Assembly: GCA_964355855.1 (NCBI GenBank) | Contig: CAYHFD010000001.1 | Span: forward strand, 9,921-73,920 | From: an uncultured Candidatus Saccharibacteria bacterium | GTDB taxonomy: Bacteria > Patescibacteriota > Minisyncoccia > Phycocordibacterales > XYD1-FULL-46-19 | Length of the DNA: 64,000 nt | Direction: 5' to 3' | Shown: positions 25,027 to 62,397 of the stretch, piece by piece | Layout: every line of letters starts with the position of its first letter | How positions within the stretch are numbered: the stretch's first letter is position 1 | Notes under the pieces: model-generated | The model's database searches: none | Seen by the model: the letters and a program-made list of their open reading frames with translations, nothing else | Told to the model about the DNA's origin: nothing | Position numbers and translations under genes: made by a program

Positions 25027-25391
25027 TGCTTGGGGGCGGGTTCGAACCGCCGACCCTTCGCTCTTCCAGAGCGTTTGGACTATATCATCATCCGTTCTGC
25101 TAATAAGCAGAGTTAGGAGGCAGGCGCTTCCCCTCAACTACGCTCGGGGTAAACCCTAAGCTAATCAAGAGTACTCCCTTTCGGGATAGTCTCTACACCT
25201 TCCGAGCACCACTTTTGAATTCTAGAATATTCTAAAAACCAAAAGTGGTGCTCGGCTTGGCTCGGGATTGTCCAAAAAATTAATCTTGGGTGTCCCCCGA
25301 ATTCACCTACTTTTTCGATCCACTTTACAATAGAAAGGCCCGAAGTTTTTTAGGGTCCAGGCGAATGCTCTACCAACTGAGCTACCCAAGC
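25027..25391 (-). tRNA. tRNA-Phe (inferred anticodon GAA) interrupted by a ~282-nt group-I-like intron in the anticodon loop
   Basis: 5' exon 25359-25391: GCTTGGGTAGCTCAGTTGGTAGAGCATTCGCCT; 3' exon 25027-25076: GAAGAGCGAAGGGTCGGCGGTTCGAACCCGCCCCCAAGCA; halves form perfect acceptor (GCTTGGG/CCCAAGC), anticodon (TTCGC/GCGAA) and T stems. Confidence 0.75.
25077..25358 (-). ncRNA. group I intron (self-splicing ribozyme candidate) within tRNA-Phe
   Basis: 5' exon ends in U, intron ends in G; contains GAGACTATCCCGAAAGGGAGTACTC (P7/GAAA-tetraloop-like) and GATGATATAGTCC (P7') reminiscent of the Tetrahymena/cyanobacterial cores. Confidence 0.65.
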
Positions 25392-35813: not shown

Positions 35814-35820
35814 CGATATA

Positions 35821-36270
35821 ATTGCCTTTTGTTTATAAGCCGAATTCTGTACCGAGCACCACTTCTGACACCCACATTCTTATTAGAAAACACTAAGTAA
35901 GTGTAAATTGATTTGCTAGTGAAAGTTAGACAGTCAGTAGCAGAAGTGGTGCTCGGCGATAGCCATTTATCTGGGATGACTGTCGCCAGCCACCTCAAGC
36001 GGCACAAACCAGTGCAAAGCACTGGAGTACGACCTTGCATTCGGGTAGGTATTTTGCCGTTTCAATCTTCAGGTTTCCCTGAAGCTTCACCCCAAAGGGT
36101 GCCTTTGCCTCTCGGCTAGGGCGTCACTGCTCTCAACCCTCGGATTGCTCCGGACAGGCGTTACCTGCTACCTTGTTCCACCATCTAAAGATAGTGGGAA
36201 TGTTCGGACTTTCCTCTATCAGCCCGCCCAATCGGGCAAACTGACAGTAGCTATCCAACAAAAGGCAACC
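35821..36270 (-). ncRNA. rnpB: RNase P RNA (bacterial type A-like)
   Basis: Minus-strand: GAGGAAAGUCCGAAC (P4 5' strand), GGUAACGCCUG, GGGUGAAGC, ACAGAAUUCGGCUUAUA (P4 3' strand); P1 GGUUGCCUUUUGUU pairs with AACAAAAGGCAAUU. Confidence 0.8.
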
Positions 36271-48061: not shown

Positions 48062-48100
48062 AGTATAGCACCCCTTGAAAACAGTCGGGAATAGTGTTTA

Positions 48101-48325
48101 ATGTCTACCAGAAAGGAGGCATGGTCAATGAGCCACAATCATCACCCCAAAAGTGGGCGCAAGCATCGACGGCATTTTGGCCGTAGCTTCGCTGGCTGGG
48201 CCGGTGATAAATTTTCGTTCATCTTGTACTATCTGCCTTTATTCGGCAGAAAACAAGCGGAATACATCACTGGTGAACAACTAGCCAAACGGCTAGAAGC
48301 CGAAGATAATGGTAAAAAGTTATGA
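48101..48325 (+). CDS. small basic protein, hypothetical
   Basis: 74-aa ORF, His/Arg-rich N-terminus; weak. Confidence 0.2.
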   Translation: MSTRKEAWSMSHNHHPKSGRKHRRHFGRSFAGWAGDKFSFILYYLPLFGRKQAEYITGEQLAKRLEAEDNGKKL

Positions 48326-48369
48326 CCGCCCGGAAACTTCGCGTTTCCGGGCGATTATTTTTTGATTTT

Positions 48370-48702
48370 TTAAAAAATTAAATGCTTTTCTATGTCGGCA
48401 AGATTTATCTGGTCATGGTCAACATCATAAACCACCACCCCTTGAGCTAAGACAAGCACCTGGGGTGATTCATGTTTAATACCGGTTTCTTCGGCAATTT
48501 GTTTAGCCATTTCCCGGTCAGCCATTACATCGACTAAATATATTGGAACCGTTATAGTTCGGTTGATATCGGCTGAAGAAAACATTGCAAAAATTCTGGC
48601 ACTAGCCCCACAACTTGGGCTATGTTTAAACACAATTACTGGTTGTTTATAGGATAAGTTTTTAGTTTCGAGCCAACCTTCAATCGTTGTCAGTTTTTCC
48701 AT
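48370..48702 (-). CDS. thioredoxin-like protein (YtxJ/DUF2847-like, single Cys)
   Basis: VIVFKHSPSCGASARIF monothiol thioredoxin-fold motif. Confidence 0.55.
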   Translation of the reverse strand: MEKLTTIEGWLETKNLSYKQPVIVFKHSPSCGASARIFAMFSSADINRTITVPIYLVDVMADREMAKQIAEETGIKHESPQVLVLAQGVVVYDVDHDQINLADIEKHLIF

Positions 48703-48754
48703 AGGCTGATATAGTTAGCGGTAATTAATCTAATCAATACTAACACATACTATT

Positions 48755-49204
48755 ATGTTGCACGAAAAAATAAAAAGTGAAATGAAAGAAGCCATGAAAG
48801 CCAAGGAGGCGGTTCGACTGTCGGTTATTCGAGGCCTATTGTCGGCTTTTACCAACGAGGCTGTTGCGAAAGGCAGAAAACCAGATGAAATGCTGACTGA
48901 CGACGAAACCTTGGCGGTATTAAAACGCGCTTCTAATCAAAGAAAAGATGCTACCTCCCAATATCGCGCCGGTGGTCGTGAAGACCTAGCGATAAATGAA
49001 GAAGCTGAACTAATTATTATTCAAGGCTATTTACCGGAACAAATGTCCCGTGAGGAAATTAAAAAAATTGCCTCCACTAAAATTGCCGAACTAGGTGCCG
49101 ATAAATCTAAAATCGGTCAACTAACAGGGGCAGTAATGAAAGAAACGGCCGGCCGGGCCGATGGGGGTGAAGTAAAGTCTGTTTTAGAAGAGCTGTTAAC
49201 CTAA
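48755..49204 (+). CDS. GatB/YqeY domain protein
   Basis: Full-length match to YqeY pattern (KEAMKAKE..RLSVIR..LSA...A...DE.L.VLKRA.NQRKDA...Y...GRED.A..EE.EL.IIQGYLPEQMS.EEI). Confidence 0.85.
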   Translation: MLHEKIKSEMKEAMKAKEAVRLSVIRGLLSAFTNEAVAKGRKPDEMLTDDETLAVLKRASNQRKDATSQYRAGGREDLAINEEAELIIIQGYLPEQMSREEIKKIASTKIAELGADKSKIGQLTGAVMKETAGRADGGEVKSVLEELLT

Positions 49205-49225
49205 AAATAATAATTTTAAAAAATA

Positions 49226-49263
49226 GAGCCCGGGCCACGCACGTGTGACCCGGGTCTTTTTTT
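49226..49263 (+). terminator. intrinsic terminator
   Basis: GAGCCCGGG-CCACGCACGTGTGA-CCCGGGTC then TTTTTTT. Confidence 0.75.
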
Positions 49264-49527
49264 ACCTTCAGCCTACCTCACCTAAAAAGGTGAGTTCCGA
49301 TCAGACATCGAAACCAAACAAAGGCAAAAACAAAAACAACAAAAAGTCCAACCATCAAGAAACGTCCCCCAACGCCCAGTAAATGAAAAGTCATGGTCGT
49401 CGCTCCCTTTTGTACCTCAACACTAAACAAATAATACTCTAACTCTTTTAATTTTCAACTACTCTCGCTCTGTCTAGTTTTTAGCACCCACTGCTTCTTA
49501 TTCTTTTTTCTTGTTTGCCTCACCGGC

Positions 49528-50220
49528 TTATTTTCGGGCTTTGGCTTGAACTTTTTCTTCCATTTGTTCCTCAACAATCTTTTCTTCTTCTTCTTTTTGT
49601 AATCGCGAGAAACCAAACAAAGCAAAAGCAATAATGGCCCCAATAACTATGGCCAATAAATCAATTAAAAATAAAGTTAAACCACCAGCAACCACTACTC
49701 GATTCATCATCACCGTCCCAATACCAACCGCGCACAGTGGTGGCAACAAAGAGACCGACACCGCGACACCCGGCAAAGTGGCAGACAAATCCTGTTTAAC
49801 CCACGCATAAGCTACCGCGAGACCAGAAGCCAAAGAAATTAAAAACATAATCAGGTCAGGCCGAATCCGCAGCAATATTTCGTCCCCAGCCACATTGCTC
49901 GAAAACAAAAAAGCAGTCGCCAAAGACACTATATAAACCAAAACCATTGAGCGAAAAATTATTTTAAGCGCCCGGCCGATGGCTAGCGGTGACGAAGTAA
50001 CCACTCCCATCGCCAGCGACAACAACGGAAACAATATTGGCGTAATCAAAATACCACCAATAGTTATGCCGGCATTGTCAGTAATAAGACCAAGGGTCGC
50101 AATAAATGTTGCAATGGCTAAAAGAAAATGAAAATCCGCTCGCGCCTGGCTTTCATGTAAAAGTTGAATGAGCGTTTTTTTCTGCTCTAGAAAGCTAGCA
50201 ACAAAAAAAGTTTTGAACAT
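49528..50220 (-). CDS. polytopic membrane protein with acidic/lysine-rich C-terminus, hypothetical
   Basis: 6-7 TM segments; no motif recognised. Confidence 0.45.
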   Translation of the reverse strand: MFKTFFVASFLEQKKTLIQLLHESQARADFHFLLAIATFIATLGLITDNAGITIGGILITPILFPLLSLAMGVVTSSPLAIGRALKIIFRSMVLVYIVSLATAFLFSSNVAGDEILLRIRPDLIMFLISLASGLAVAYAWVKQDLSATLPGVAVSVSLLPPLCAVGIGTVMMNRVVVAGGLTLFLIDLLAIVIGAIIAFALFGFSRLQKEEEEKIVEEQMEEKVQAKARK

Positions 50221-50377
50221 GATATATTTGTCTATTATTGTAACACAAAAATATCAAAGCAAGTGCTAAAAAGATGTGGACATTTGCAAATATAAAAATA
50301 AAATCTTTAATTTTTTTACAAAACAACAAAAGACTCAATCACTCCCCTTTCAGTATGTTTTCTGCTAGACTAGCTCT

Positions 50378-51109
50378 ATGTTAAAAGACAAGCCTTCATT
50401 TCCTGTCCGCCTGAATAAATACCTCGCCGACCACTATCCCGTCACCAGACGTTCGGCGGACACTCTTATCACCAAAGGCAAAGTTAAAATAAACGGTAAA
50501 GTCGCCGTGCTTGGTCAAATGGTCCAAGCTGGTGACACCGTTAAAGTAGAGAGCAAAGCTAGCCGACCCGCCTATCGCTATTTTGCCTACCACAAGCCAA
50601 TCGGGGTAGCTACTCATGCTTCCGCTCCCAGCGAAAAAGCAATCTTGAATGTTTTACGTCTACCCATCAAAGCTTTCCCAATTGGTCGCCTCGATAAAGA
50701 TTCCCGCGGTCTAATTATTTTGTCCGACGATGGTCGCTTGGCTGGTGCCCTTCTGGCGCCAGAATTTAAACACGAGAAAGAATATGTTGTAACGACCGAC
50801 CGCACTATTAATGACGCCAATTTAAAACAATTAGCCGTTGGCGTAAAAATTGAAAATTATCACACCAAGAAAGCTAAGACTAAAAAAATTAGGGACAAGG
50901 AATTTTCCATCATTTTGACCGAGGGTAAAAAACACCAGATCCGGCGAATGTGTGCCGCTTTGTCACTGCAAGTTCACGATTTAATTCGTACGAGAATTGA
51001 AAATATCGAGCTAGGTAAACTACCAGCTGGTGAGGTTCGGGAAATTACTGGTAGTGAACTAGTAGAATTCCTAACTCGTCTTGGACTCCAGAAAAAAACC
51101 ACTGGCTAG
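50378..51109 (+). CDS. 16S/23S rRNA pseudouridine synthase (RsuA/RluB family) with S4 domain
   Basis: S4 N-terminus (VRLNKYLA), YFAYHKP, FPIGRLDKDSRGLIILSDDG catalytic Asp motif. Confidence 0.85.
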   Translation: MLKDKPSFPVRLNKYLADHYPVTRRSADTLITKGKVKINGKVAVLGQMVQAGDTVKVESKASRPAYRYFAYHKPIGVATHASAPSEKAILNVLRLPIKAFPIGRLDKDSRGLIILSDDGRLAGALLAPEFKHEKEYVVTTDRTINDANLKQLAVGVKIENYHTKKAKTKKIRDKEFSIILTEGKKHQIRRMCAALSLQVHDLIRTRIENIELGKLPAGEVREITGSELVEFLTRLGLQKKTTG

Positions 51110-51316
51110 AAAAAAATATCCACAATCGCCTTTGTTTATAACAACTTTTATGTTAAACTTATAAGTGGAATATCTGCTCGAAACACCTAAAAGCGCCCCC
51201 AAACAAAAGCGTTAGCGTTTTTATTTGTTTTGCAGTTAGATAAATGGTCATTAGTGCGACTCTGCGCGCTCTTAGGCGTATTTTTTGTTTTTAAAATTTA
51301 TTCCTAAGCCGTAGAA

Positions 51317-51360
51317 ATTCAAGGCCGGCTCCCTAACGGGAGTCGGCCTTGAATGTTTTA
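51317..51360 (+). terminator. intrinsic terminator
   Basis: ATTCAAGGCCGGCTCCC-TAAC-GGGAGTCGGCCTTGAAT then GTTTT. Confidence 0.75.
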
Positions 51361-51424
51361 AAAACGACAGTCACCCAATTTGTTTGTTATAATATAAAAG
51401 ATTAGAAATTAACTAAAATAAATC

Positions 51425-51814
51425 ATGGAACTATTATTTCTCTTGGGCCGTGTCTTGTTTGGTGGCTACTTTATCTTAATGGGTATTAACCATTTTAAAA
51501 ATCCAGCGGGGCTCATAGCCTACGCCAATTCTAAAAAACTGCCTTATCCTAAAGCATCGGTTTATATTTCCGGACTAATGCTTTTCCTTGGCGGACTAGG
51601 GGTGGTGACTGGTGCTTTTTATGTCACCGCCTTGTGGTTGTTAGTAATATTCCTCCTAGTGTCAGCCTTTTCAATGCACAATTATTGGAAGGCTTCGACC
51701 ACCGAGGCAAAGACTGCCGATAAAGCTAGTTTTCAACGCAATTTAGCTTTAGCTGGCGCATCTTTAATGCTAGCCACCATGCAAGCCGAGTGGATATACT
51801 CGGTGATGTTTTAG
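51425..51814 (+). CDS. DoxX family membrane protein
   Basis: LGRVLFGGYFILMGINHF DoxX N-terminal motif, four TM. Confidence 0.75.
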   Translation: MELLFLLGRVLFGGYFILMGINHFKNPAGLIAYANSKKLPYPKASVYISGLMLFLGGLGVVTGAFYVTALWLLVIFLLVSAFSMHNYWKASTTEAKTADKASFQRNLALAGASLMLATMQAEWIYSVMF

Positions 51815-51914
51815 CTAAGCAAATAACGACCTATTTGACAAATTATATTATATAGTGTATTATATACACCAGATTAGTTGCCGGATTGCCCGGTAACACA
51901 AAGGAGAGACACTC

Positions 51915-52196
51915 ATGCCAGCAGCGGCCCCCTCGACGACCCCGATTAGAACTTTCGACCAGGCCTCCGCCCTTCGGTCCGGAGATCGCCTCCGGTCAAA
52001 AGAAGGAGAAGTTTGGACCGTGGCCAAGGTTGACCGAAATCGGTCATACCCCGATGTTCCCCCACCAGCGTTCGTATTCACGAACGGCCAGCGGGAAATC
52101 CTCGCGGGGTGGTGGCCATTCAGACCACAAGGCTTCGTGGACGAGAGCTTCCAGCTCGTCCCGCAACTCATCGGGGCCACCGTGGTCCAGGACTAG
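51915..52196 (+). CDS. hypothetical protein (high-GC, foreign-looking)
   Basis: AAAGGAGAG SD 7 nt before ATG; Pro/Arg-rich 93 aa; followed by strong terminator. Confidence 0.45.
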   Translation: MPAAAPSTTPIRTFDQASALRSGDRLRSKEGEVWTVAKVDRNRSYPDVPPPAFVFTNGQREILAGWWPFRPQGFVDESFQLVPQLIGATVVQD

Positions 52197-52219
52197 CTCC
52201 TCCTTTCTCGTGTCCCATC

Positions 52220-52256
52220 AGCCGGAACCCCTCAGGGTTCCGGCTGTCTTTTTTTA
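52220..52256 (+). terminator. intrinsic terminator
   Basis: AGCCGGAACCC-CTCA-GGGTTCCGGCT then GTCTTTTTTT. Confidence 0.8.
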
Positions 52257-52262
52257 ATTTTT

Positions 52263-52835
52263 TTATAATTCGATTTCTTTGTTCACCTCACGGTCTAGCA
52301 TATAAATATAGTCCCTGGTTTCTTCCGGGGTGAAAACTTGCAGACCAAGCGCTCTGGCCTCTTCACTTATTTTTTCATACATCTCTTCCGCTTGGTCGGC
52401 CACGTCCGCTTCTTGCTCGGCTTCATAGTAATAGTGCTCGCCCGGCGTCCGCACCAAAGACCACTCAATATCGTGATAGCGATAAATATCTTTCAAGCGG
52501 TGCATCCACACCCCCGTGGTACAGCCCAAGGCCTTCATCACTTCTTTACCCTTAGTTAAATCAGCTACCGCCAGCGGCAATGATATTTCCTGCCGGCTGT
52601 TATTGTTGGCCGAAACTTTATGCTTGACCATAATCTCACATTTGTCATTGGTCTTCCGCAAGCGAATATCAGTTGCCCGTTTTAAGGGGTCGACATCATA
52701 GCCAGGGTAACCATCGGTCAACAAAATCATCTCTCGCTCATGACTTTCGACGTGTTCACCCTTATCAGCCATAAACTTCTTTAGCCGATCAAATTCCTCT
52801 TTCGTCAATTCTCCTCTTATTTCAACTTCAATCAT
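52263..52835 (-). CDS. CYTH (triphosphate tunnel metalloenzyme / CyaB-like) domain protein
   Basis: N-terminal MIEVEIRGEL (ExExK) and downstream acidic/basic tunnel residues. Confidence 0.65.
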   Translation of the reverse strand: MIEVEIRGELTKEEFDRLKKFMADKGEHVESHEREMILLTDGYPGYDVDPLKRATDIRLRKTNDKCEIMVKHKVSANNNSRQEISLPLAVADLTKGKEVMKALGCTTGVWMHRLKDIYRYHDIEWSLVRTPGEHYYYEAEQEADVADQAEEMYEKISEEARALGLQVFTPEETRDYIYMLDREVNKEIEL

Positions 52836-53004
52836 ATGATTTGGGGGGGTTATTGGCTATGGGAACAGAATAACAAATATAAAGTTAAAGAAAAAGTTTT
52901 TTAAAAACTTTTGTCAAGTTTCCCCTGCCAACCAAATTATGGTAGAACTAAGGACAGAACTGAACCGTAACAACCAAGCAACAACTCCAGAAAGGGGTGA
53001 CTTT

Positions 53005-54465
53005 ATGCCAAACACAAACGGCATATGGACCGAAATCCTTGGTCAACTCCCCGCGTTAGGAGTTGACGAACATACGATGACTTTTTGGGCCTCCCAGTGT
53101 CAATTTGGTGGAATAATAAATCAGCAAGTTACGATCCTTGCATCCTCACAGTTTGTTGGTGACTGGGTTCGTGACAACGGTCTGGCCGACAAAATTGTTG
53201 AAGCAGCTAACATGGCAGAGTCCTGCCATACGGAAATCCGTTCCTTCAAGATTGTAGTGGATAACCAAATCAAGTTGTCCGAAGAACTATTGTCTGAAGT
53301 GGATATCGACTCGGAAATTCCCTTTGGGTGCCAAGCTACAATCCAGGCTACCACGGTAGCACCAGCACCACTTCGGGCGTCAGCTCACCAACGTTCGACC
53401 AAGAATCGAGGCTGGGGCAACTACCGCGAAGGCAACTTGGTCGTTGGTAAAGCCAACAACTTTGCCACAGCCGCCATCATTGAGCTGGTAAAACCCAACC
53501 GGAGTTTCAAGGGGTTACTCCTTATCGCTCCACAAGGTCGTGGCAAAAGTCTCCACCTGGAAGCTGCCTGTTTTGCCTTCAGTGCTAAACATAACAGCGC
53601 CCAAAAAATTGTCTTCGTTAGCGGAGATGAATTTTTGGCCCACTATTGTGGAACTGCCAACGGCAATGGCGGGGGCAAGAAATTCGACGACCAATACACG
53701 GGAGTCGACCTGCTCGCTCTAGACGGTCTCGAGAGAATGGCGGGCAACACTCGCAAAGGAACCCAAGATGCGCTCGCGCGAGTGCTGGACCGGCTCGAAA
53801 GAAGGAGGGCGCCGGTGCTAATCGCCTCAACAATGCCCCTAGACGAGCTGGCCTTGACCCCGGACTTGAGTTCACGTCTTCAGTCCCTAGTTCCAGTCTC
53901 GCTCAATTTACCCGACACTGATATGCGCCGGGAAATCACCGGGCGAAAATTGGCAATCTGGGGGTTGGCGCCACATCTGCAACCGAGTGGTGACTCGCTC
54001 TCGTTTTTAGCTGGCTTGCCAGTGACAGATATGCGCGAGTTGGTTGGCCACCTAGACAACATCTTGCTTCACAGCAAGTGTTTCCAGCGCCAACTGACGC
54101 TGGACGAGATAAGGGAGTTGGTTTTGGGTCCAACCAAAACTAAACCACCAGTCACTTGCGAGTTGGTCTGTGCTACCATCGCCGAGCACTATCCCGATTT
54201 GAAACGGTTAGGGGGGCTCGCGGTGCTAGCAGGCAAACGTCGAGACCAAGACGTAGCGTTCTATCGCCATCTGGCGATGTATCTGTGTCTGAAATTGGTC
54301 CCCGACGTAACCGGACCCGATGTTGCCAAATTGTTCAACCGCGACCGGACTTCGGTTAGTCATGGTGTGGACAAAATCAACGAGTTGCTGAAAAGCGACG
54401 AGGGTGAGGACCTGCGCTTTCGTGTTGCAAGGATTTGCGACACGCTTGGTTGTACAATCAAATAG
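53005..54465 (+). CDS. divergent DnaA-like protein (AAA+ core + C-terminal DnaA-type HTH), high-GC paralog
   Basis: IWTEILGQLP..MTFW (domain I-like), NNFATAAIIEL...LLIAPQGRGKS (Walker A variant), VDLLALDGLE (Walker B), LSSRLQSL sensor block, AFYRHLAMYLCLKL...RDRTSVSHGVDKI (domain IV HTH); GGTGA SD before ATG at 53005. Confidence 0.6.
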   Translation: MPNTNGIWTEILGQLPALGVDEHTMTFWASQCQFGGIINQQVTILASSQFVGDWVRDNGLADKIVEAANMAESCHTEIRSFKIVVDNQIKLSEELLSEVDIDSEIPFGCQATIQATTVAPAPLRASAHQRSTKNRGWGNYREGNLVVGKANNFATAAIIELVKPNRSFKGLLLIAPQGRGKSLHLEAACFAFSAKHNSAQKIVFVSGDEFLAHYCGTANGNGGGKKFDDQYTGVDLLALDGLERMAGNTRKGTQDALARVLDRLERRRAPVLIASTMPLDELALTPDLSSRLQSLVPVSLNLPDTDMRREITGRKLAIWGLAPHLQPSGDSLSFLAGLPVTDMRELVGHLDNILLHSKCFQRQLTLDEIRELVLGPTKTKPPVTCELVCATIAEHYPDLKRLGGLAVLAGKRRDQDVAFYRHLAMYLCLKLVPDVTGPDVAKLFNRDRTSVSHGVDKINELLKSDEGEDLRFRVARICDTLGCTIK

Positions 54466-54520
54466 CCCGAGCTAGTGGAGTGATCCACGAGCCCGGGCTA
54501 TATTATTTTTATCTATTTTT
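54463..54520 (+). terminator. intrinsic terminator
   Basis: TAGCCCGAGC...GAGCCCGGGCTA hairpin then TATTATTTTTATCTATTTTTTT. Confidence 0.7.
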
Positions 54521-54548
54521 TTAATATTTTGTGCTAAAACTTGGATAA

Positions 54549-55334
54549 CTAACCTTGGTCATCGTCATCATCGTCATCATCGTCATCATCGTCATCATCG
54601 TCATCATCGTCATCATCGTTTAAATTGTCGCCTTCGTCATCGCTTTCGCCATCTTGATCTTCTTGTTCATCATCCCTATCCTCATTGTCTAAGTTATCCT
54701 CGTCATTAATTAAATCCTGACTAGTTTTCTTGTCCTTTATTTTTATTTTAACTTCTTCTTTGCCATTGTTAAATTTAATTTCAATTTCAATACGAGAGGA
54801 CAATAAATCCGTCGGCACTCGTCCAGTCACCCCCGCCACTTCTAGTATCTCATTTATCCGCGCCAAAGTTTGAGGACCAACTACTCCCACCTGTTCTATT
54901 CTTACTTTATTTTGAAAACGTTTAACAGCTTGTTCGGTTAGTGGCCCAAAAAAACCAGTAATTACTCCTTCTGGGTATAAAGCTGGATCAGTCGCTAAAA
55001 TAGTTTGCAATTCTTTGACATCATCTCCCGACATACCAATTTTTAAACTTCTTTTTAACTTAAGCTGGGCTAATTCCGCATTTAAGGATTGATTAACCGT
55101 CTCAGAAACAACTAATTGTGCTTGTAATTTTTTAATTTGAGCCAATAATGATGCGATTTTTTCCTCAAAAGAGCCCAATGCACTGTTTGCAGTAGAGGAC
55201 GTGGTTGAGGTTGTACTTGAAACAACCGATTCATTAGTACTAGTTGCCGTGCTGGTTGCCGTCTGAGCAAGCCCCTCACTTAAGGTAAAAAAGAAACCAA
55301 AAAGCACCAAGACTACATATCCGATTTTTCTCAT
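54549..55334 (-). CDS. secreted peptidoglycan-binding-domain protein with C-terminal poly-Asp tail
   Basis: Signal peptide, Ser/Thr-rich linker, coiled coil, PG_binding_1-like MSGDDVKELQTILATDPALYPEGVITGFFGPLTEQAVKRFQ, then ~25 consecutive Asp. Confidence 0.7.
   Translation of the reverse strand: MRKIGYVVLVLFGFFFTLSEGLAQTATSTATSTNESVVSSTTSTTSSTANSALGSFEEKIASLLAQIKKLQAQLVVSETVNQSLNAELAQLKLKRSLKIGMSGDDVKELQTILATDPALYPEGVITGFFGPLTEQAVKRFQNKVRIEQVGVVGPQTLARINEILEVAGVTGRVPTDLLSSRIEIEIKFNNGKEEVKIKIKDKKTSQDLINDEDNLDNEDRDDEQEDQDGESDDEGDNLNDDDDDDDDDDDDDDDDDDDDQG
54558..54618. repeat. (GTCATCATC)n microsatellite encoding the poly-Asp tail
   Basis: Seven near-perfect 9-bp units; direct read. Confidence 0.9.
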
Positions 55335-55458
55335 AATTATTTTGTTTATTAAGTTATATAATCAAGACTTACCTCTTGATTATATATTAATATCAATATT
55401 TAGCACACTTTATAACCGTAGCCATACTACGGGTATAAAAACCAAAACCGAAAGCAAT

Positions 55459-57240
55459 TTACTGTCTCTTATGTTTGGCGCGTTCAGCTTCGGTTAAATA
55501 CTGTTTACGCAAGCGCACACTTTTCGGTGTAATTTCCAAATACTCGTCGTCGGACATTATTTCCAGTCCCCGCTCAATAGTAATTGGTAGTGGGGGAATT
55601 AAATAAAGTTTTTCATCAGTACCCGAAGCACGCATATTGGTTAGCTGTTTACCCTTAGTTGGGTTCACCGCCATTTCTTCACCCTTGGACGTATTGCCCA
55701 CCACCATGCCCTCATACACCTCGGTCGCCGCTTCAATATACAAAGTTCCGCGCGTCTGCAAATTTGCCAGCGAAAAACCTAAAGCTTTGCCAGGAGCCAT
55801 CGAGGTCATAGAACCCACGGCCCGCTTTTCTATTTCCCCAGCATAAGGTTTAAAACCCAATACCCGACTGGCAAATATGCCTTCACCTTTAGTGTCAATA
55901 ATAAACTGCCCCCGATAACCCAACAAACCACGAGTCGGCCCCTCAAGCGTAAGACGCACAATTTTATCATCAGTCTTCATATTGGTCATATGGACCGCCC
56001 GTTTGCCCAGCTTCTCAATCACTGCCCCCTGGGCTTCAGTTGGAATTTCGATCGTCACCTCTTCATATGGTTCTGATTTTACCCCCTCGATATCTTTAAT
56101 AATCACTTGCGGTTGGGACACCGACAGCTCAAACCCTTCACGACGCATATTCTCGAGCAGGATCGCGATATGCAATTCCCCGCGGCCGTAGACTTTCATT
56201 GTATCCCCTTCAAAGTCGACCCTTAGTCCGACATTGACTTCGAGCTCTTTCAACAACCGCTCGCGGATCTGCCGACTAGTCACAAATTTCCCTTCGCGGC
56301 CACCAAAAGGGGAGTCGTTGACCAAAAAATTTAGGGCAATCGTCGGTTCGTCGACATGAATAAAAGGCAATATCTCCGCCTCGGGATTATCACAAATAGT
56401 GTCACCAATATAAATTTCCGAGAGCCCAGCCACCATTACAATATCGCCGGCGACAGCCTCTTTCACCTCTTGGCGGCTAATCCCCGCAAAAGTGAAAAGT
56501 TTGGTAATCTTGCCCTCTTCCACTTGGCCATTCGATTTTTTTATATAAATTTTAGTTCCGTCTTTGATGACGCCTTCGTAAACCCGCGCAATCGCCAGCC
56601 GACCCAAAAAGTTGTCGTAAGCCAAGTTAAAAGGCTGGGCCCGCAGGGGCGCCGTGTTATTACTGGCGGCTGGTGGCACATGTTCGAGAATCGTATCAAG
56701 TAGAGGCTCAAGGTTTTTCCGTTCATCATCCAGTTTTTTCATCGCTACCCCATCTTTACCAATCGCGTACACCGTAACAAAGTCTAATTGTTCGTCAGTG
56801 GCCCCTAGTTCCATAAAAAGTTCCAAAATTTCATCATGAGCCCGGGCCGCATCAGCTGCTGGCTTGTCGATTTTGTTTAGCACCACGATCGGCTTGTGAC
56901 CAATTTCAAGCGATTTTTTCAACACAAAACGAGTTTGGGGCATGGGTCCTTCTTGGGCATCTACCACCAAAAGCACCGAGTCGATCGAACGCAAAACGCG
57001 CTCAACCTCGGAACCAAAGTCGGCGTGGCCGGGAGTATCAACAATATTTATCTTGGTCCCTTTGTAATTGATCGAGGTATTTTTGGCGTAAATAGTAATA
57101 CCCCGCTCGCGCTCCAGATCATTAGAATCCATCGTGGTCCCTTCACCAGTCATCCCCGTCTCACGCATAATAGCGTCGGTGAGCGTAGTCTTACCGTGGT
57201 CAACGTGGGCAATAATGGCGATATTACGTATCTCAGTCAT
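55459..57240 (-). CDS. typA: translational GTPase TypA/BipA
   Basis: [32 protein letters not shown]; BipA-specific C-terminal domain. Confidence 0.95.
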
Positions 57241-57249
57241 ACTAGAATC

Positions 57250-57470
57250 TAAAGTTAATTAAACCACTTCTCGCCCCGTAGGAAGCTTGGCTTTCCTACT
57301 GGGGTGGTCCACACTTGTCCCGTAGCCAGCGTACTCGCTGTGGTACCGGGATGGGCAATAATAGCGATGTTACGAATTTCGGTCATTGTAGAAATAATTA
57401 TTGTATTAGCGACCCGCCCGCAACGCCTAAGCTTGCGATGACGGGCGGGTGTTACGAATTTCTGTCATAA
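57250..57470 (-). promoter_or_regulatory. bipA leader with two degenerate upstream copies of the first ~7-11 codons, each preceded by a GC-rich hairpin
   Basis: Minus-strand ATGACTGAGATACGTAATATCGCCATTATTGCCC (57207-57240) recurs as ATGACCGAAATTCGTAACATCGCTATTATTGCCC (57352-57386) and ATGACAGAAATTCGTAAC (57451-57468); hairpins at 57274-57304 and 57414-57450. Confidence 0.5.
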
Positions 57471-57546
57471 AAACAAAATGGCCGACACGGGCCAGAAGTA
57501 ATAGTAATAATACCAACAATACCAACTAAAGTCAACAATCCGCTTT

Positions 57547-58299
57547 TTATTCAAACTCTAAATATAATGGGGCGTGGTCAGAGACTTCATCTGGTAAAAC
57601 ATTAAAATTCTTAAGCTCTATCTCCGGTGAAATGAAAATATAGTCAGCATAGGGTTCAATATGACCAAATTTATATAAACTAGTCCGGGTCGTTGCAATT
57701 TTACTTTCGCTAACCAAATTGCGTAAACCACTTTCCTCTAACAAGCGAATGCTCTCGGTTTCCGGCCGAACATTAAAATCGCCACAGATTATTTTTGGCA
57801 AATTAAAACCTTTTAGAAAACCGAGGATCCGCTGTGACTGCGCGAGACGCTCTGGTGTATCATGTTTTAAAAGCGTCCAGTGCCCATGAAGGTTGGCCAC
57901 TAGATACTCGAGACTATTTTTTTCTATTCGAAACCATTGCAGAAGACGATTATGGTCAGCGTCAGGGTCTTCGTCCACCGGAAAATTACTATTTTCATGA
58001 ACCATAATAGCACCGTCTTCTTTTACTTTAATATCTTTCCGGACAAAAGTGGCTAAACCATATTCCCCATTATATAACGAAGAAAAATAGCCGACGTGGT
58101 TAGATAAAAGTTTTTCTATTTCTTCGTACAGACGGGGGTTAATATTTTTAATTTGCATCGGGTTAGCTTCGGTCGCCGTGCCACCCTTAAAAACTTCTTG
58201 AAAGCAAAAAATATCAATACTATTTTCTTTTTCCTTTATAAAGGATAGCAACGGTTCAAGCACCTTTCCACCCCAAGTGTTTAAGGTAATAAGTTTCAT
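57547..58299 (-). CDS. endonuclease/exonuclease/phosphatase (EEP) family nuclease
   Basis: LITLNTWGG, FCFQEV, GDFN, SDHAPL catalytic blocks. Confidence 0.75.
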   Translation of the reverse strand: MKLITLNTWGGKVLEPLLSFIKEKENSIDIFCFQEVFKGGTATEANPMQIKNINPRLYEEIEKLLSNHVGYFSSLYNGEYGLATFVRKDIKVKEDGAIMVHENSNFPVDEDPDADHNRLLQWFRIEKNSLEYLVANLHGHWTLLKHDTPERLAQSQRILGFLKGFNLPKIICGDFNVRPETESIRLLEESGLRNLVSESKIATTRTSLYKFGHIEPYADYIFISPEIELKNFNVLPDEVSDHAPLYLEFE

Positions 58300-58548
58300 T
58301 TATTTGTTGCCACTGATAGGCTTAATTAAAATCTCGGATTCAATTTTTCTGAACCGCTCCACTTCCCGACCATTTTTCGTAATGGTTTCCAAAAACATCG
58401 TGGTTGGTCGCGCCCACAGCCCACCATCTTCCAGGTGAATATAAACGGTTAGCGGTTCCAAGGTTTCGCTATGTTGAACTTCTAACAGCACTCGCACTTT
58501 GGTCCCTTTGTAGTGTTCATATATCGCTCCGATTTCTAGTTTCTTCAT
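58300..58548 (-). CDS. DUF1653-like small protein
   Basis: YEHYKGTKVRVL...HSETLEPLTVY pattern. Confidence 0.6.
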   Translation of the reverse strand: MKKLEIGAIYEHYKGTKVRVLLEVQHSETLEPLTVYIHLEDGGLWARPTTMFLETITKNGREVERFRKIESEILIKPISGNK

Positions 58549-58561
58549 TTATATATTTTAG

Positions 58562-58610
58562 TCTAAAACAACAGAAAAGCCCACTAGAGAAGCGAGCTTC
58601 TCTAGTGGGC
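58562..58610 (-). terminator. intrinsic terminator
   Basis: GCCCACTAGAGAAGC-GAGC-TTCTCTAGTGGGC, U-run on minus strand. Confidence 0.75.
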
Positions 58611-58629
58611 AAAACGATTTCCACAATGT

Positions 58630-59031
58630 CTAGTGGCCAGGGCTACCACAAATTCTCACGGCGTGTACAAATTCTGCTTCGGGCGGGACTAGTCTCCCAG
58701 TGAGAGATAAGGGGATACACAAAGCGTCCACCTGTAAGACCTTGCTAAAGCAGAAGTCCAGTATCTCTTTTGCAAGACGGAACTGCGACGGGGCAAAAGT
58801 TGCCATAGTGTCTTCCAGTAACGCCCATTCCGCATCTTCAAACACCAGCCAGCAAAATTCCTCTTTTTTCGCCAGTTCCTCGACGATGTTAGAGAGAGAT
58901 TTTTCGCCCCTACCCAGCCTAAATTTAACTTCCTTTCTCGCCCAGCTTGAGGGGGGACGAGTGTCATCCGCCCCTGGTGTCAATGTGTACATCATCGGTC
59001 TCCTTCCTGCACTTTGAAAAGTGCTTGCCAA
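58630..59031 (-). CDS. hypothetical protein (elevated GC)
   Basis: 133-aa ORF followed by terminator; no motif. Confidence 0.35.
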   Translation of the reverse strand: MASTFQSAGRRPMMYTLTPGADDTRPPSSWARKEVKFRLGRGEKSLSNIVEELAKKEEFCWLVFEDAEWALLEDTMATFAPSQFRLAKEILDFCFSKVLQVDALCIPLSLTGRLVPPEAEFVHAVRICGSPGH

Positions 59032-59143
59032 CCCAAATTCTCTACTACATATAATAGCACCGTATTACTATTTAGTCAACTCTACCGTAACCGGTAACAC
59101 CTAAACGCTTCTGGTATTGATTAGAATACACCCAGTTTAAATT

Positions 59144-59971
59144 TTATCTTAAACCTTCACACACTACCCCATCACTATCACTATCTAATTTGTGGGGGTC
59201 GGCCGTCGGGCCACCGCAAGCAATAAAAACTGATTGAGCTTCAGCTTGAGTGGTAAAATTGGTGCAATTGTAAATATTGCGGTCACAAATATAGTTTTCC
59301 CCGACCCCCGCCACGCTGGCCGTGGCGGGGGTGTCTTTTTCTATTTTTTTATCCTCACACACCCCATCGGCCCATAAACCCTTTTTTCCCTCGCGTGCTT
59401 GTTTTTCCGCCAACTTAAACTCGGTCTGGTATTTATAGGGTAAATTGTAGGTGTACTCGTAAGCAAATCCTTGGCTAATCATCAGCTTATTAAAATTGGT
59501 CCCGTCGGCTAGAAAAACATAGCGCAACAGCCGGTTATATTTATCCCGCTCACCATGGCTTGGGTCTGCTTCCAGACGCACCGTCCGACCAGCCAAAACC
59601 GCTTTGGCTTTACTGGAAGCCTCTTTACCAAAACATTCTACCGCCTTACGCGGGTCCACGGTCTCTGGTGTATTTATACCAATTAGACGCAAAGTTTCTG
59701 CTTTGCCATTTATATTCACCACCAGCGTGTCCCCATCAATCACTTTCACTACTTGGTAAGCGTCGCCAGTCACGGCCACCGGCAGTAAATTTCCGGCGGA
59801 TGATGTCGCCCGACTATTTGATATTTTTTCCGTTGAAGTCGATCCACTTATTCCCGTCTCCAATTGGGTTATCTCTTCTCTAGGTCCTGTTCCCCATCCA
59901 CTCAACAAAATAAAACCGGCCGCGAGTAATATCACGAGCCCCAGACCAGTAGCCATTAATTTAGAAAACAT
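59144..59971 (-). CDS. secreted thermonuclease (SNase) with C-terminal excalibur Ca-binding domain
   Basis: Signal peptide; VIDGDTLVV, RLIGINTPE, KYNRLLRYVF SNase blocks; DSDSDGVVCE excalibur motif. Confidence 0.8.
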   Translation of the reverse strand: MFSKLMATGLGLVILLAAGFILLSGWGTGPREEITQLETGISGSTSTEKISNSRATSSAGNLLPVAVTGDAYQVVKVIDGDTLVVNINGKAETLRLIGINTPETVDPRKAVECFGKEASSKAKAVLAGRTVRLEADPSHGERDKYNRLLRYVFLADGTNFNKLMISQGFAYEYTYNLPYKYQTEFKLAEKQAREGKKGLWADGVCEDKKIEKDTPATASVAGVGENYICDRNIYNCTNFTTQAEAQSVFIACGGPTADPHKLDSDSDGVVCEGLR

Positions 59972-60093
59972 TTCCCCAGTCTAACATCTCTTCCCTTCGG
60001 CTATAAATCAACTATGACTAAATCTACTTAAATAATAAGGCCCGGGGTTAAAGACCCGGGCCGGTTTTTACTACTTCACACAGTATAGTAAGA

Positions 60094-60933
60094 CTAAAGA
60101 ACAGAAACCGGTAGATGCAAGATAGCGGCCCCAGTTTCCAAATACCAACCCAAGTTGGTCGTCGTGTGACTAGAGACCAGATACCCATGGCGCGCCACAT
60201 ATTCACCCATGACTAGATACTGGGCTGAAGTCCGCGCCGAGCGTTCCATCAGTTCACTAAAAGAAGCCTGGGGACAAATTCGCTCATACATCCGTAAGCG
60301 CGCTACGGTCTCGCCGACTATCCGGCTGAAATATTGCCCGTCGCTCATCAGCTTAGCCGTAAGCTGCTCTTCGGTCTCGACTAAATTCGGTATCTCGTCA
60401 GTCATCAAGCGCACTTGCCAGCCCCGACTCGCTACTTTAGCCCTGGTCGCCGCCACTGAAGCTTCAACACAAGCCAGCAGTTCCTCCCGACTACGACCGA
60501 CGGCTCGGCTAAGCACTGGGTCATCGGCCTCCTGGTTAGGCATCAGGATTCGCACTTCCGCTTGGGGTAAAACCCTGGTCAGCCGCTCTAGGAATCTAAT
60601 CTGACGTTCGCCCAAGAGTGACACCCCGGTCCCCACCGAGCGAAAGTCATAGGCCCCGTCCCGGTGGCTATAATCCAGGCAAGATGGGGCAATAATCACC
60701 GGCTGTTCATTGGTTCTGGCAATCACCAGCCCAATGCGATCACCCATCACTTTGGTTCGGGAAGCATAGCCGCACACACCGATTGTTCGGCACACCCGCC
60801 GCACTTTTTCCATTCTCAACCGCTTGTGTTGCTCTCCCCATAAGCCTGCCTCACCATTGAGGTACTTCCTCGTCCGTGGCAAGCGCAGGCGGGGTACTGC
60901 CATTTCTTCCATCATTTCCACCACTGTTTGCAT
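60094..60933 (-). CDS. hypothetical protein (high-GC, foreign-looking)
   Basis: AGGAG 8 nt before ATG at 60933 (longer ORF to 61098 probably non-coding); no recognised motif. Confidence 0.35.
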   Translation of the reverse strand: MQTVVEMMEEMAVPRLRLPRTRKYLNGEAGLWGEQHKRLRMEKVRRVCRTIGVCGYASRTKVMGDRIGLVIARTNEQPVIIAPSCLDYSHRDGAYDFRSVGTGVSLLGERQIRFLERLTRVLPQAEVRILMPNQEADDPVLSRAVGRSREELLACVEASVAATRAKVASRGWQVRLMTDEIPNLVETEEQLTAKLMSDGQYFSRIVGETVARLRMYERICPQASFSELMERSARTSAQYLVMGEYVARHGYLVSSHTTTNLGWYLETGAAILHLPVSVL

Positions 60934-61269
60934 TTCACATCTCCTGGTTGGTAAAGATCCACTCAACAAAAAACTCCTCGTCGCCAGGCAGGAAAAAACC
61001 TGCCCAGGGACGAGGAGTCTTGAAAAAAACCCAAGCTCGTGGTGCCACCCTAGTTTTGGAACCAAAAAAACACCGTGGAGGTGCTCTTTTAGTTCCACTC
61101 ATCGGCGCGTACATCCCAGAGGGACAGATACCGATTATCCCATGGTTACGGAGGAGTGCCGAGCTGTCACTTGCGCAACAGCCATCCTGCCCAAACGGGC
61201 GATCGCGGCCCAACCCTCGGCTTACAGCCGAGGACCACGATCAAGGATTTTGTCTCTTGTTGAAGTACT

Positions 61270-61300
61270 AAGCTTAGTCTACCAACGCTACCCCCGCTGT
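61270..61300 (-). promoter_or_regulatory. sigma70-like promoter (TTGACA-16-TAGACT) upstream of 60094-60933 gene
   Basis: Minus-strand TTGACAGCGGGGGTAGCGTTGGTAGACT. Confidence 0.4.
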
Positions 61301-61349
61301 CAACCACCACCTTTTCTTTTTCCCTTTTTATTTCTATTTTTTCTATTCC

Positions 61350-61373
61350 CCTATTCGCGCGAATTAGAGATAT
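61350..61373 (-). repeat. 24-bp motif copy 2
   Basis: Exact copy; supplies last codons and stop of ArsR-like gene. Confidence 0.9.
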
Positions 61374-61635
61374 GTTTAGAAACGTATTGAACAATAGGAT
61401 GACGATCCGGCGACAGCGAATACCACATTTCCAAACCCCGCTGCTTTTTTTCCACAATATCAGCCCCGTAAAGCACTGCCAAATGTTTAGAGGTGGCTTT
61501 GAAAGACAAGTTGATTTTTTCGGCCAACTCACTTACTGTCGCCTCTTTTTCTCGCCCTAAATATTTGATCAGCGCCAGCCGCCGCCCATTGGCCAGTGCT
61601 TTCAACACCCGCTCTAACTCCTTAATATTTTTCAT
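61351..61635 (-). CDS. ArsR/SmtB-family transcriptional regulator (C-terminus supplied by 24-bp repeat)
   Basis: RRLALIKYL...ATVSELAEKINLSFKATSKHLAVLYGADIV winged HTH; ends HISNSRE-stop inside repeat. Confidence 0.8.
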   Translation of the reverse strand: MKNIKELERVLKALANGRRLALIKYLGREKEATVSELAEKINLSFKATSKHLAVLYGADIVEKKQRGLEMWYSLSPDRHPIVQYVSKHISNSRE

Positions 61636-61657
61636 CTTCCCATTTTACCACCCTTGC

Positions 61658-61681
61658 CCTATTCGCGCGAATTAGAGATAT
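61658..61681 (-). repeat. 24-bp motif copy 3
   Basis: Exact copy; between racemase stop and ArsR-like ATG (about 25 nt upstream of ATG). Confidence 0.9.
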
Positions 61682-61692
61682 ATTCTACGCTT

Positions 61693-62397
61693 TTAGGTTT
61701 TATTTTCCAGAGCTAAAGCCAAGGCCTTGTCCACTATCACTTGATTAGAGTTTATTAATGGTACCGCTAAAGCCATGGCCCCGAGCGCCAGTGGCAACTC
61801 TGTACAACCAAGAATAATCACCTCGGCCCCGGCCTGCACCAAGCTAGCCACAATTTCTTGAATCAGCTGAGTATCGGCCCCATCATTTTTTCCAGCCATA
61901 ACTTTCAAAATAATCCCATCTAACTTAGCCTGTTCGGCCACGGTCACAACTAGAGGCTCGATACCGGCTTTCACCAGCTTGTCCGTATAAAGATTATACT
62001 TGGCACTACTGGCTGAGGTTAGGAGTCCCGCCCGAGTGTAGCCCCCAGTCTTCGCCATCTGCACTGTCTCATCGACAATACTCAAAATCGGAATATTGAG
62101 TCCGGCCTGCATTTCGTCTTGATAGATATGTACCGTATTGCAAGCGATCACAACAAAATCACACTTGGCCGATTCTAGTCTTTTGACCCCAGATACCAGT
62201 TGCCTCTTGACGGCTTCAGCCTCCACAATCCCCCGCTCGTCAAAACCCTCGAGCGGTAGATTGTAAATAATTATCGGCGGAAACTCATTGTCTTGCACCG
62301 CCCCATATTTATTATGAGCCAGATCGATAATTAGATTGTAGAAATAAGCACTTGCCTCCGGGCCCATACCACCCAAAATACCAATTGTTTTCTTCAT
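61693..62397 (-). CDS. aspartate/glutamate racemase family protein
   Basis: IGILGGMGPEAS, VIACNTVH, IILGCTELP two-Cys racemase motifs. Confidence 0.85.
   Translation of the reverse strand: MKKTIGILGGMGPEASAYFYNLIIDLAHNKYGAVQDNEFPPIIIYNLPLEGFDERGIVEAEAVKRQLVSGVKRLESAKCDFVVIACNTVHIYQDEMQAGLNIPILSIVDETVQMAKTGGYTRAGLLTSASSAKYNLYTDKLVKAGIEPLVVTVAEQAKLDGIILKVMAGKNDGADTQLIQEIVASLVQAGAEVIILGCTELPLALGAMALAVPLINSNQVIVDKALALALENKT

Follow-up and report, generated by a model that had tools for sequence, protein, structure and literature searches.

The window, meaning the whole 64-kb stretch of DNA that was analysed, carries on its minus strand an ORF at 54549..55334 that is a real gene. The window belongs to an ENA contig, Hain_H52_01um_R1_98 (ERZ1292616, 76.9 kb, coverage about 10x), which originates from Hainich groundwater, well H52, and on which the exact 261-aa protein has been called. 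From the N- to the C-terminus, the protein is made up of a signal peptide and a long helix, then a PG_binding_1 domain and a short amphipathic beta-hairpin, and lastly an acidic tail of 56 residues. The features of the gene and its flanks are given below, with the evidence in brackets.

54549..55334, minus strand: complete gene for a predicted secreted peptidoglycan-binding protein with an acidic tail, 261 aa (ORF list, homologues, exact protein on the ENA contig)
55266..55334, minus strand: signal peptide, aa 1-23, MRKIGYVVLVLFGFFFTLSEGLA followed by Q, without a lipobox Cys (by eye; alignment of the A/Q position)
55197..55265, minus strand: Ser/Thr-rich low-complexity segment, aa 24-46 (gaps in alignment A1; AF2 pLDDT < 50)
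55032..55196, minus strand: long alpha-helix, aa 47-101 (AF2 pLDDT about 79-94; weak coiled-coil Pfam matches)
54855..55031, minus strand: PG_binding_1 domain, aa 102-160 (PF01471; N-terminal domain of PDB 1lbu; invariant columns)
54735..54794, minus strand: amphipathic beta-hairpin RIEIEIKFNNGKEEVKIKIK, aa 181-200 (AF2, low confidence; subfamily conservation)
54552..54719, minus strand: acidic, predicted-disordered tail, aa 206-261 (composition; AF2)
54628..54653, minus strand: older duplication of 12 bp, now decayed, within the proximal tail, DGES/DDEG (TRF, period 12, 2.2 copies, 85% matches)
54559..54619, minus strand: perfect tandem repeat, 9-bp unit x 6.8, (GAT GAT GAC)n on the coding strand (TRF; codons)
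54463..54500, no strand assigned: GC-rich hairpin between the convergent dnaA-like gene and the peptidoglycan-binding gene (RNA fold)
55355..55386, minus strand: inverted repeat with perfect 13-bp arms, TATATAATCAAGA/TCTTGATTATATA, and a loop of 6 nt (its end lies 20 nt upstream of the ATG)

The signal sequence, judged by eye, reads MRK, a hydrophobic core and GLA before Q, and the cleavage-like position between A and Q is aligned in 28 family members (alignment A1). There is no Cys in the 261-aa protein, so it is not a lipoprotein. The helix at aa 47-101 showed weak coiled-coil Pfam matches to YabA and ZapB and is probably a coiled coil. PF01471 matched aa 102-160 over its full 57-position model (E 8.3e-12, 45.5 bits, cut-off 23); the same region matched residues 9-76 of 1lbu_A, the N-terminal domain of a Streptomyces Zn DD-peptidase (E 5.5e-6), and CtpB 4c2c (E 4e-4), and it contains the columns YPEG, LTE and AV.R.Q, invariant in alignment A1. 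By its sequence, the domain belongs to PG_binding_1, and peptidoglycan binding is predicted. The initial annotation had called the product a secreted PG_binding_1 protein, and the PF01471 match together with the conserved A/Q site agrees with that call.

The AF2 model of the protein had a mean pLDDT of 58.6. In the PG_binding_1 region it placed helices at 104-115, 121-126, 134-144 and 154-166 with pLDDT of only 51-69, and the two strands of the hairpin (181-189 and 192-200) were predicted with low confidence, the confidence of the peptidoglycan-binding domain and the hairpin being only 50-70. R181 and G191 of the hairpin are invariant in alignment A1. Past aa 200 there was no predicted secondary structure, and pLDDT was 40-58. 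From this architecture we infer that the protein is exported and binds the wall, and that its tail is disordered. Directly after the signal-peptide site, aa 24-46 (QTATSTATSTNESVVSSTTSTTS) form a second lineage-specific low-complexity expansion; the columns of this insertion are gapped in 27 of 27 homologues in alignment A1, which places it in this lineage only.

TRF ranked the array at 54559..54619 as the strongest tandem repeat of the window, with a score of 122 for 6.8 copies of period 9 and 100% matches. The runner-up scored 54, and the top scores of 30 resamples of the window under a first-order Markov model lay at 35-59. Located within the ORF at 10 nt from the stop codon, the array encodes exactly 20 Asp in a row (aa 240-259, 54558..54617; hereafter D20), followed by Gln-Gly-stop. 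TRF and the codon listing confirmed the earlier description of a 9-bp repeat encoding the acidic C-terminus, here perfect and frame-keeping; the poly-Asp tail described with it is likewise real, but its length of about 25 residues overcounts the uninterrupted run. A poly-Ser reading of the plus strand was rejected because no plus-strand ORF of at least 40 aa spans the array. Among the last 56 residues of the protein, 38 are D or E and one is K or R, and 33 of the last 61 residues are Asp. The net charge of aa 201-261 is -36, made up of -16 in the proximal tail and -20 in the D20 run, and each folded segment of the protein is close to neutral. No comparably acidic 30-residue stretch was found in the other window ORFs of at least 80 aa.

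The gene is a stand-alone unit. The hairpin at 54463..54500 folded with -31.5 kcal/mol (z -6.0; 0 of 200 shuffles folded as well) and is probably a bidirectional terminator shared with the convergent gene. On the other side, the inverted repeat at 55355..55386 could be a 5'-leader hairpin or an operator/protein-binding palindrome. The convergent gene (52939..54465, plus strand) encodes a divergent DnaA-like protein with DnaA_N, AAA and HTH domains. It scored only 158 bits against TIGR00362 (cut-off 344), its GC content is about 52% compared with about 42% for the window, and dnaN was not seen in the ORFs immediately adjoining it; the gene may not be an origin marker, or may be a paralogue. A replication origin in the AT-rich spacer, which contains DnaA-box-like words, was rejected: the spacer is only 83 bp long, carries the strong terminator hairpin and coincides with no turning point of cumulative GC skew.

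Several other features of the window are recorded here as separate observations. The first 17-36 nt of typA/bipA (ATGACNGARATNCGTAA...) are present three times in tandem orientation at 57224..57468 (minus strand). The real typA/bipA start is at 57240, a 36-nt copy from 57386 opens a 43-aa ORF, and an 18-nt copy from 57468 is followed by a GC-rich hairpin; Rfam gave no match for the region of these copies, which might be scars of 5'-end insertions or a start-mimicking leader. A bacterial class A RNase P RNA at 35820..36266 (minus strand) passed its gathering score of 100 only narrowly, with 103.4 bits, which suggests that this RNA is divergent. A tRNA gene at 25027..25391 (minus strand) is interrupted in the anticodon loop by a roughly 300-nt group I intron, for which RF00028 matched 25058..25361 (54.3 bits, gathering score 50). 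ARAGORN called no tRNA on the intact sequence and called Pro(UGG) or Ser after trial splicing, and reading the U-33/omega-G positions by eye gave Phe(GAA). The two halves flanking the intron are as follows.

25359..25391, minus strand: tRNA half
25027..25061, minus strand: tRNA half

A protein search returned 151 relatives of the 261-aa protein, the best of them 57% identical (E 2.5e-55), and all named relatives came from Patescibacteria/Parcubacteria MAGs. About 35 homologues in Patescibacteria/Paceibacteria MAGs have the same layout including the acidic tail. In 27 homologues (206-294 aa, 45-55% identical) we recognized the signal peptide, the helix, the peptidoglycan-binding domain, the hairpin and the D/E tail, and the D/E tails of the top homologues mostly end in DDD. 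We delimited the acidic-tail subfamily by a signal peptide, a helical N-terminal region, PG_binding_1, a hairpin with the pattern S-R-(V/I)-x-I-x-I ... G ... and a D/E-rich C-terminal tail of at least 36 aa. The window protein falls within it, with R181, G191, a 61-aa tail and a net charge of -36. A CxSSGxGNxC loop after the hairpin occurs in about half of the members and is absent from the window protein; it is not defining, because P0005, P0009 and P0012, among others, also lack it. Judged from these alignments, the polyanionic tail is a trait of the whole subfamily, a point that the initial annotation had missed, and only the homopolymeric D20 is lineage-specific.

The next-best matches, the PF16656 relatives (P0029 to P0120), have in common with the subfamily a signal peptide, a coiled coil at the N-terminus and a PG_binding_1 core (45-70% identical), but in them a PPGLLIAPGI linker and an FN3-like domain replace the K/E hairpin and the tail, and the acidic tail is absent. 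An exhaustive profile search against 1.84 billion representatives gave 21,656 matches at E <= 1e-3, mostly multi-repeat PG_binding_1 proteins, among which P0136, P0142, P0146, P0147, P0191 and P0051 are more distant members with hairpin and acidic tail. The architecture is therefore old within the clade. Pfam gave no match for the hairpin and tail. A 44-aa profile of the hairpin retrieved nothing at E <= 1, its own family members included, probably due to composition filtering. In the literature on poly-Asp tails of bacterial wall proteins or in Patescibacteria, we found no description of a peptidoglycan-binding protein with a poly-Asp or polyanionic tail.

Some homologues are longer. In these, a second K/E hairpin and a module of about 45 aa (…GDEFRFVLNTTDHSAIIAELSNRLGLTESEIESVIEFED…) lie between two acidic stretches, which thus flank a folded module; the extra module had no Pfam match either (query of about 60 aa). 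The acidic segments of these long forms may act mainly as linkers. The long-form homologues comprise proteins P0006, P0008, P0020 and P0021 and the following loci.

L002, 3995..4999: long-form homologue
L004, 3944..4762: long-form homologue
L005, 3995..4873: long-form homologue

The acidic tail is encoded at only five (L002-L006) of the 80 best loci in GTDB species representatives. No conserved neighbourhood was found between the window and these five loci, and the adjacency of TypA and the DnaA-like gene, which none of the five shares, was rejected as incidental. Three of the five loci have, 1.2-2 kb downstream and in the same orientation, an ORF of about 400 aa with a Cys-x2-Cys-G-x-x-AIPH start; nothing corresponding to this ORF is present in the 14 kb compared round the window gene (48001..62000).

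L003, 5895..7091: Cys-x2-Cys-G-x-x-AIPH ORF
L004, 6826..8022: Cys-x2-Cys-G-x-x-AIPH ORF
L005, 6082..7350: Cys-x2-Cys-G-x-x-AIPH ORF

A role of the tail in contact with a host cell had, like cation chelation, been suggested by the initial annotation. Patescibacteria are often episymbionts, and the tail could attach to basic patches of a host's surface, perhaps with Ca2+ as a bridge, or act as a decoy that soaks up cationic antimicrobial peptides. In Paceibacteria, secreted proteins with peptidoglycan-binding domains are among the most highly expressed unknown genes, and such proteins have been proposed as attachment factors in Paceibacteria parasitising methanogens (PMC10936435). However, the gene stands alone without conserved neighbours, and nothing in the window links it to pili, adhesins or secretion systems. 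A featureless polyanion would give no specificity, and a peptidoglycan-binding domain would bind the cell's own wall or that of a bacterial host, not an archaeal one. We consider this explanation very doubtful.

To compare tails, we measured them from the end of the hairpin in short-form homologues. They are 36-61 aa long, the window protein having the longest (61 aa), with net charges of -24 to -39 (-36 in the window protein). Asp makes up 54% of their residues, Glu 19%, Ser 8%, Gly 6% and Asn 5%, and A, V, H and Y are each below 1%, though these four are one nucleotide change away from GAY. The large genes of the window contain GAA 481 and GAG 176 times (657 Glu) versus GAT 264 and GAC 239 times (503 Asp). 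Since these genes use Glu codons more than Asp codons, the Asp excess of the tails is not mutational, and the composition looks selected.

We further compared 30 close pairs (not phylogenetically independent) in which the core, i.e., the peptidoglycan-binding domain and the hairpin (101-106 aa), is 85-97% identical. The core had no gap columns in 30 of 30 pairs, whereas the tail had 1-10 gap columns in 29 of 30, and tail identity in these pairs was only 50-78%. The DNA that encodes the tail is, in every homologue, a degenerate tandem repeat with 66-86% match and a period of 3 to 33 bp, always a multiple of three; a 100% perfect array is present only in the window gene among the tails compared. 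The combination of tail indels, a gapless core and decayed in-frame repeats therefore points to evolution of the tail by in-frame slippage with the charge kept. On these comparisons, the tails arise through in-frame slippage and then wear down through substitutions, with selection on charge and Asp content. The D20 array is on repeat perfection a recent expansion and supplies more than half of the tail charge of the window protein (20 of 36 negative charges). The alignments clearly indicate that the acidic tail is conserved in a small, uncharacterised subfamily and that its length has changed often over evolutionary time.

The rapid drift of tail sequence and length would also fit a tail that binds nothing, a solubility or spacer element (entropic bristle or linker) in which D20 is neutral junk in an unconstrained region. 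The linker-like acidic stretches on both sides of the folded module in the long forms would agree with this. So would the C-terminal place of the tail, where an acidic run could be tolerated because its translational cost is lowest far from the N-terminus (10.1101/2021.02.02.429294). Acidic runs destabilise translating ribosomes (intrinsic ribosome destabilisation), worst near the N-terminus, and less so where a long nascent chain comes before the run and counteracts them (10.1101/2021.02.02.429294; PMC11162784); since the destabilisation is strongest near the N-terminus, the C-terminal position would be the least costly for an acidic tract, though some ragged C-termini might still be made. 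However, the net charge is conserved even in homologues less than 50% identical, as are the preference for Asp and the avoidance of A, V, H and Y, and such conservation is not neutral; in the short forms, nothing follows the tail that it could link. A ligand-free tail has a small chance of being the explanation.

The preference for Asp over Glu, which runs against the genome's own usage, raises the question of minerals. Poly-Asp is a classic modifier of CaCO3 crystallisation, and Asp-rich disordered proteins control carbonate biomineralisation. An Asp-rich surface polyanion might inhibit calcite nucleation or mediate attachment to carbonate in a limestone aquifer; the contig carrying the window protein comes from Hainich well H52 and the homologue at L006 from Hainich well H43, in an aquifer that we take to be carbonate rock. 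L002-L005, however, come from river-water and soil MAG sets, so that the subfamily shows no clear restriction to carbonate. A mineral-interface role appears improbable.

The initial annotation had also proposed that in-frame slippage changes the length of the tail. Between homologues, the indels in 29 of 30 close pairs and the degenerate in-frame repeats support the proposal indirectly; within a population, variation is not evident, the identical D20 protein having been called on two contigs with no length difference between them. An exact-sequence cluster look-up for strain variants returned none, a search of JGI metagenome contigs with exact 25-nt flanks gave no variant, and no near-identical protein was found elsewhere, the best relative being the one at 57% identity.

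These results bear on a population contingency locus, in which the array would slip often, tail lengths would be mixed and the surface would be heterogeneous. Bacterial contingency loci likewise have a perfect short tandem repeat in a gene for a surface protein. The perfect 6.8-copy, 100%-match array implies recent repeat dynamics, and the frequent tail indels and the fossil repeats in homologue tails are in line with it. The length of the unit, 9 bp, is however divisible by three: slippage changes only how long the tail is, and on/off switching is ruled out; we rejected a strict phase-variation (contingency) locus, in that an in-ORF unit of this size causes no frameshift. In contrast to contingency loci, the array allows only variation in size, of the kind seen in size-variable repeat surface proteins. 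The tract is also short, at seven 9-bp copies, two contigs carry the identical 261-aa protein, the metagenome scan and the protein search (best 57%) yielded no variant, and the narrow family-wide band of net charge argues for stabilising rather than diversifying selection. Frequent slippage in present populations is unlikely, although it keeps some plausibility.

Among known systems, staphylococcal Sdr/Clf proteins are likewise wall-associated and carry a long acidic low-complexity region made by in-frame tandem DNA repeats. The length of the repeat differs among strains. Unlike the window protein, which has no LPXTG-like motif, Sdr/Clf proteins have a covalent LPXTG anchor; their repeat is a Ser-Asp dipeptide rather than a pure Asp run ending in QG-stop, and it forms a stalk inside the protein, with the ligand-binding domain on one side and the anchor on the other, rather than a free C-terminal tail. 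Sequence homology is absent, and with neither LPXTG nor the Ser-Asp repeat present, an Sdr/Clf-type protein was rejected (for sdr diversity, see PMC3098876). The RTX-type nonapeptide motif GGxGxD is also absent from the 261-aa protein.

The tails of asporin (D-repeat), calsequestrin, EMRE and HMGB1 resemble D20 in having a homopolymeric or nearly homopolymeric Asp run and a trinucleotide-type repeat. Tails of this type bind calcium or basic partners. These eukaryotic acidic-tail proteins are unrelated and from a different kingdom, so the analogy is physicochemical only. The asporin D-repeat is length-polymorphic (PMC6771297, PMC5895348).

As a whole, the observations are best explained by an exported, wall-tethered, Asp-rich polyanion that binds cations and whose tail is renewed by slippage, a reading that we favour tentatively and hold at somewhat less than an even chance. 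The envelope protein would be exported, its signal peptide cleaved, and it would attach non-covalently to the cell's own peptidoglycan via PG_binding_1; the N-terminal helix probably drives oligomerisation. The C-terminus would then be a free, disordered Asp-rich polyanion of about 60 residues with a net charge of about -36. Probably the tail provides fixed negative charge in the wall zone, where it would bind or buffer Mg2+/Ca2+, and it may keep the surface hydrated and repulsive. Short GAY/GAR-rich units slip in frame and then decay by point mutation, while selection preserves charge, Asp content and approximate length rather than sequence; (GAT GAT GAC)6.8 is the most recent such expansion. 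Acidic low-complexity regions have been proposed as charge clusters coordinating Ca, Mg or Zn (PMC6821194). For the window protein we infer cation binding by analogy, and its tail may still vary in length today.

The analogy for a wall polyanion is with teichoic acids. In Firmicutes, these provide fixed negative charge in the wall, cation binding, hydration and repulsion; wall teichoic acids are polyol-phosphate polymers built by Tag/Tar enzymes and are flexible wall polyanions. Like the predicted tail, they are wall-tethered and flexible, with tens of charges per chain and proposed cation binding. They differ in being polyol-phosphate chains covalently linked to peptidoglycan and made by Tag/Tar, whereas here an encoded peptide would be held by a non-covalent domain, and the equivalence is hypothetical. 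A teichoic-acid-like role of the tail is suggested by this likeness. In a stronger form, the subfamily would be a genetically encoded substitute for teichoic acid (about -30 charge) that sets wall cations or prevents carbonate encrustation and is tuned by slippage over the short term, with D20 just expanded; we regard this form as distinctly unlikely.

The envelopes of Patescibacteria are poorly understood, and the secreted proteins that they express most highly include uncharacterised ones with peptidoglycan-binding domains. Taken by itself, an acidic low-complexity tail is unsurprising, and repeat-made acidic tails are known, so this wall-binding example, with its putative role, is a modest addition. 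The locus is a clean bacterial case in which a low-complexity region stands part-way between the expansion of a repeat and its decay. Despite the turnover of sequence and length, the clade keeps an Asp-biased tail of roughly -30 charge, and a protein polyanion of this kind may, hypothetically, contribute to wall charge and cation handling in cells where envelope biosynthesis is reduced.
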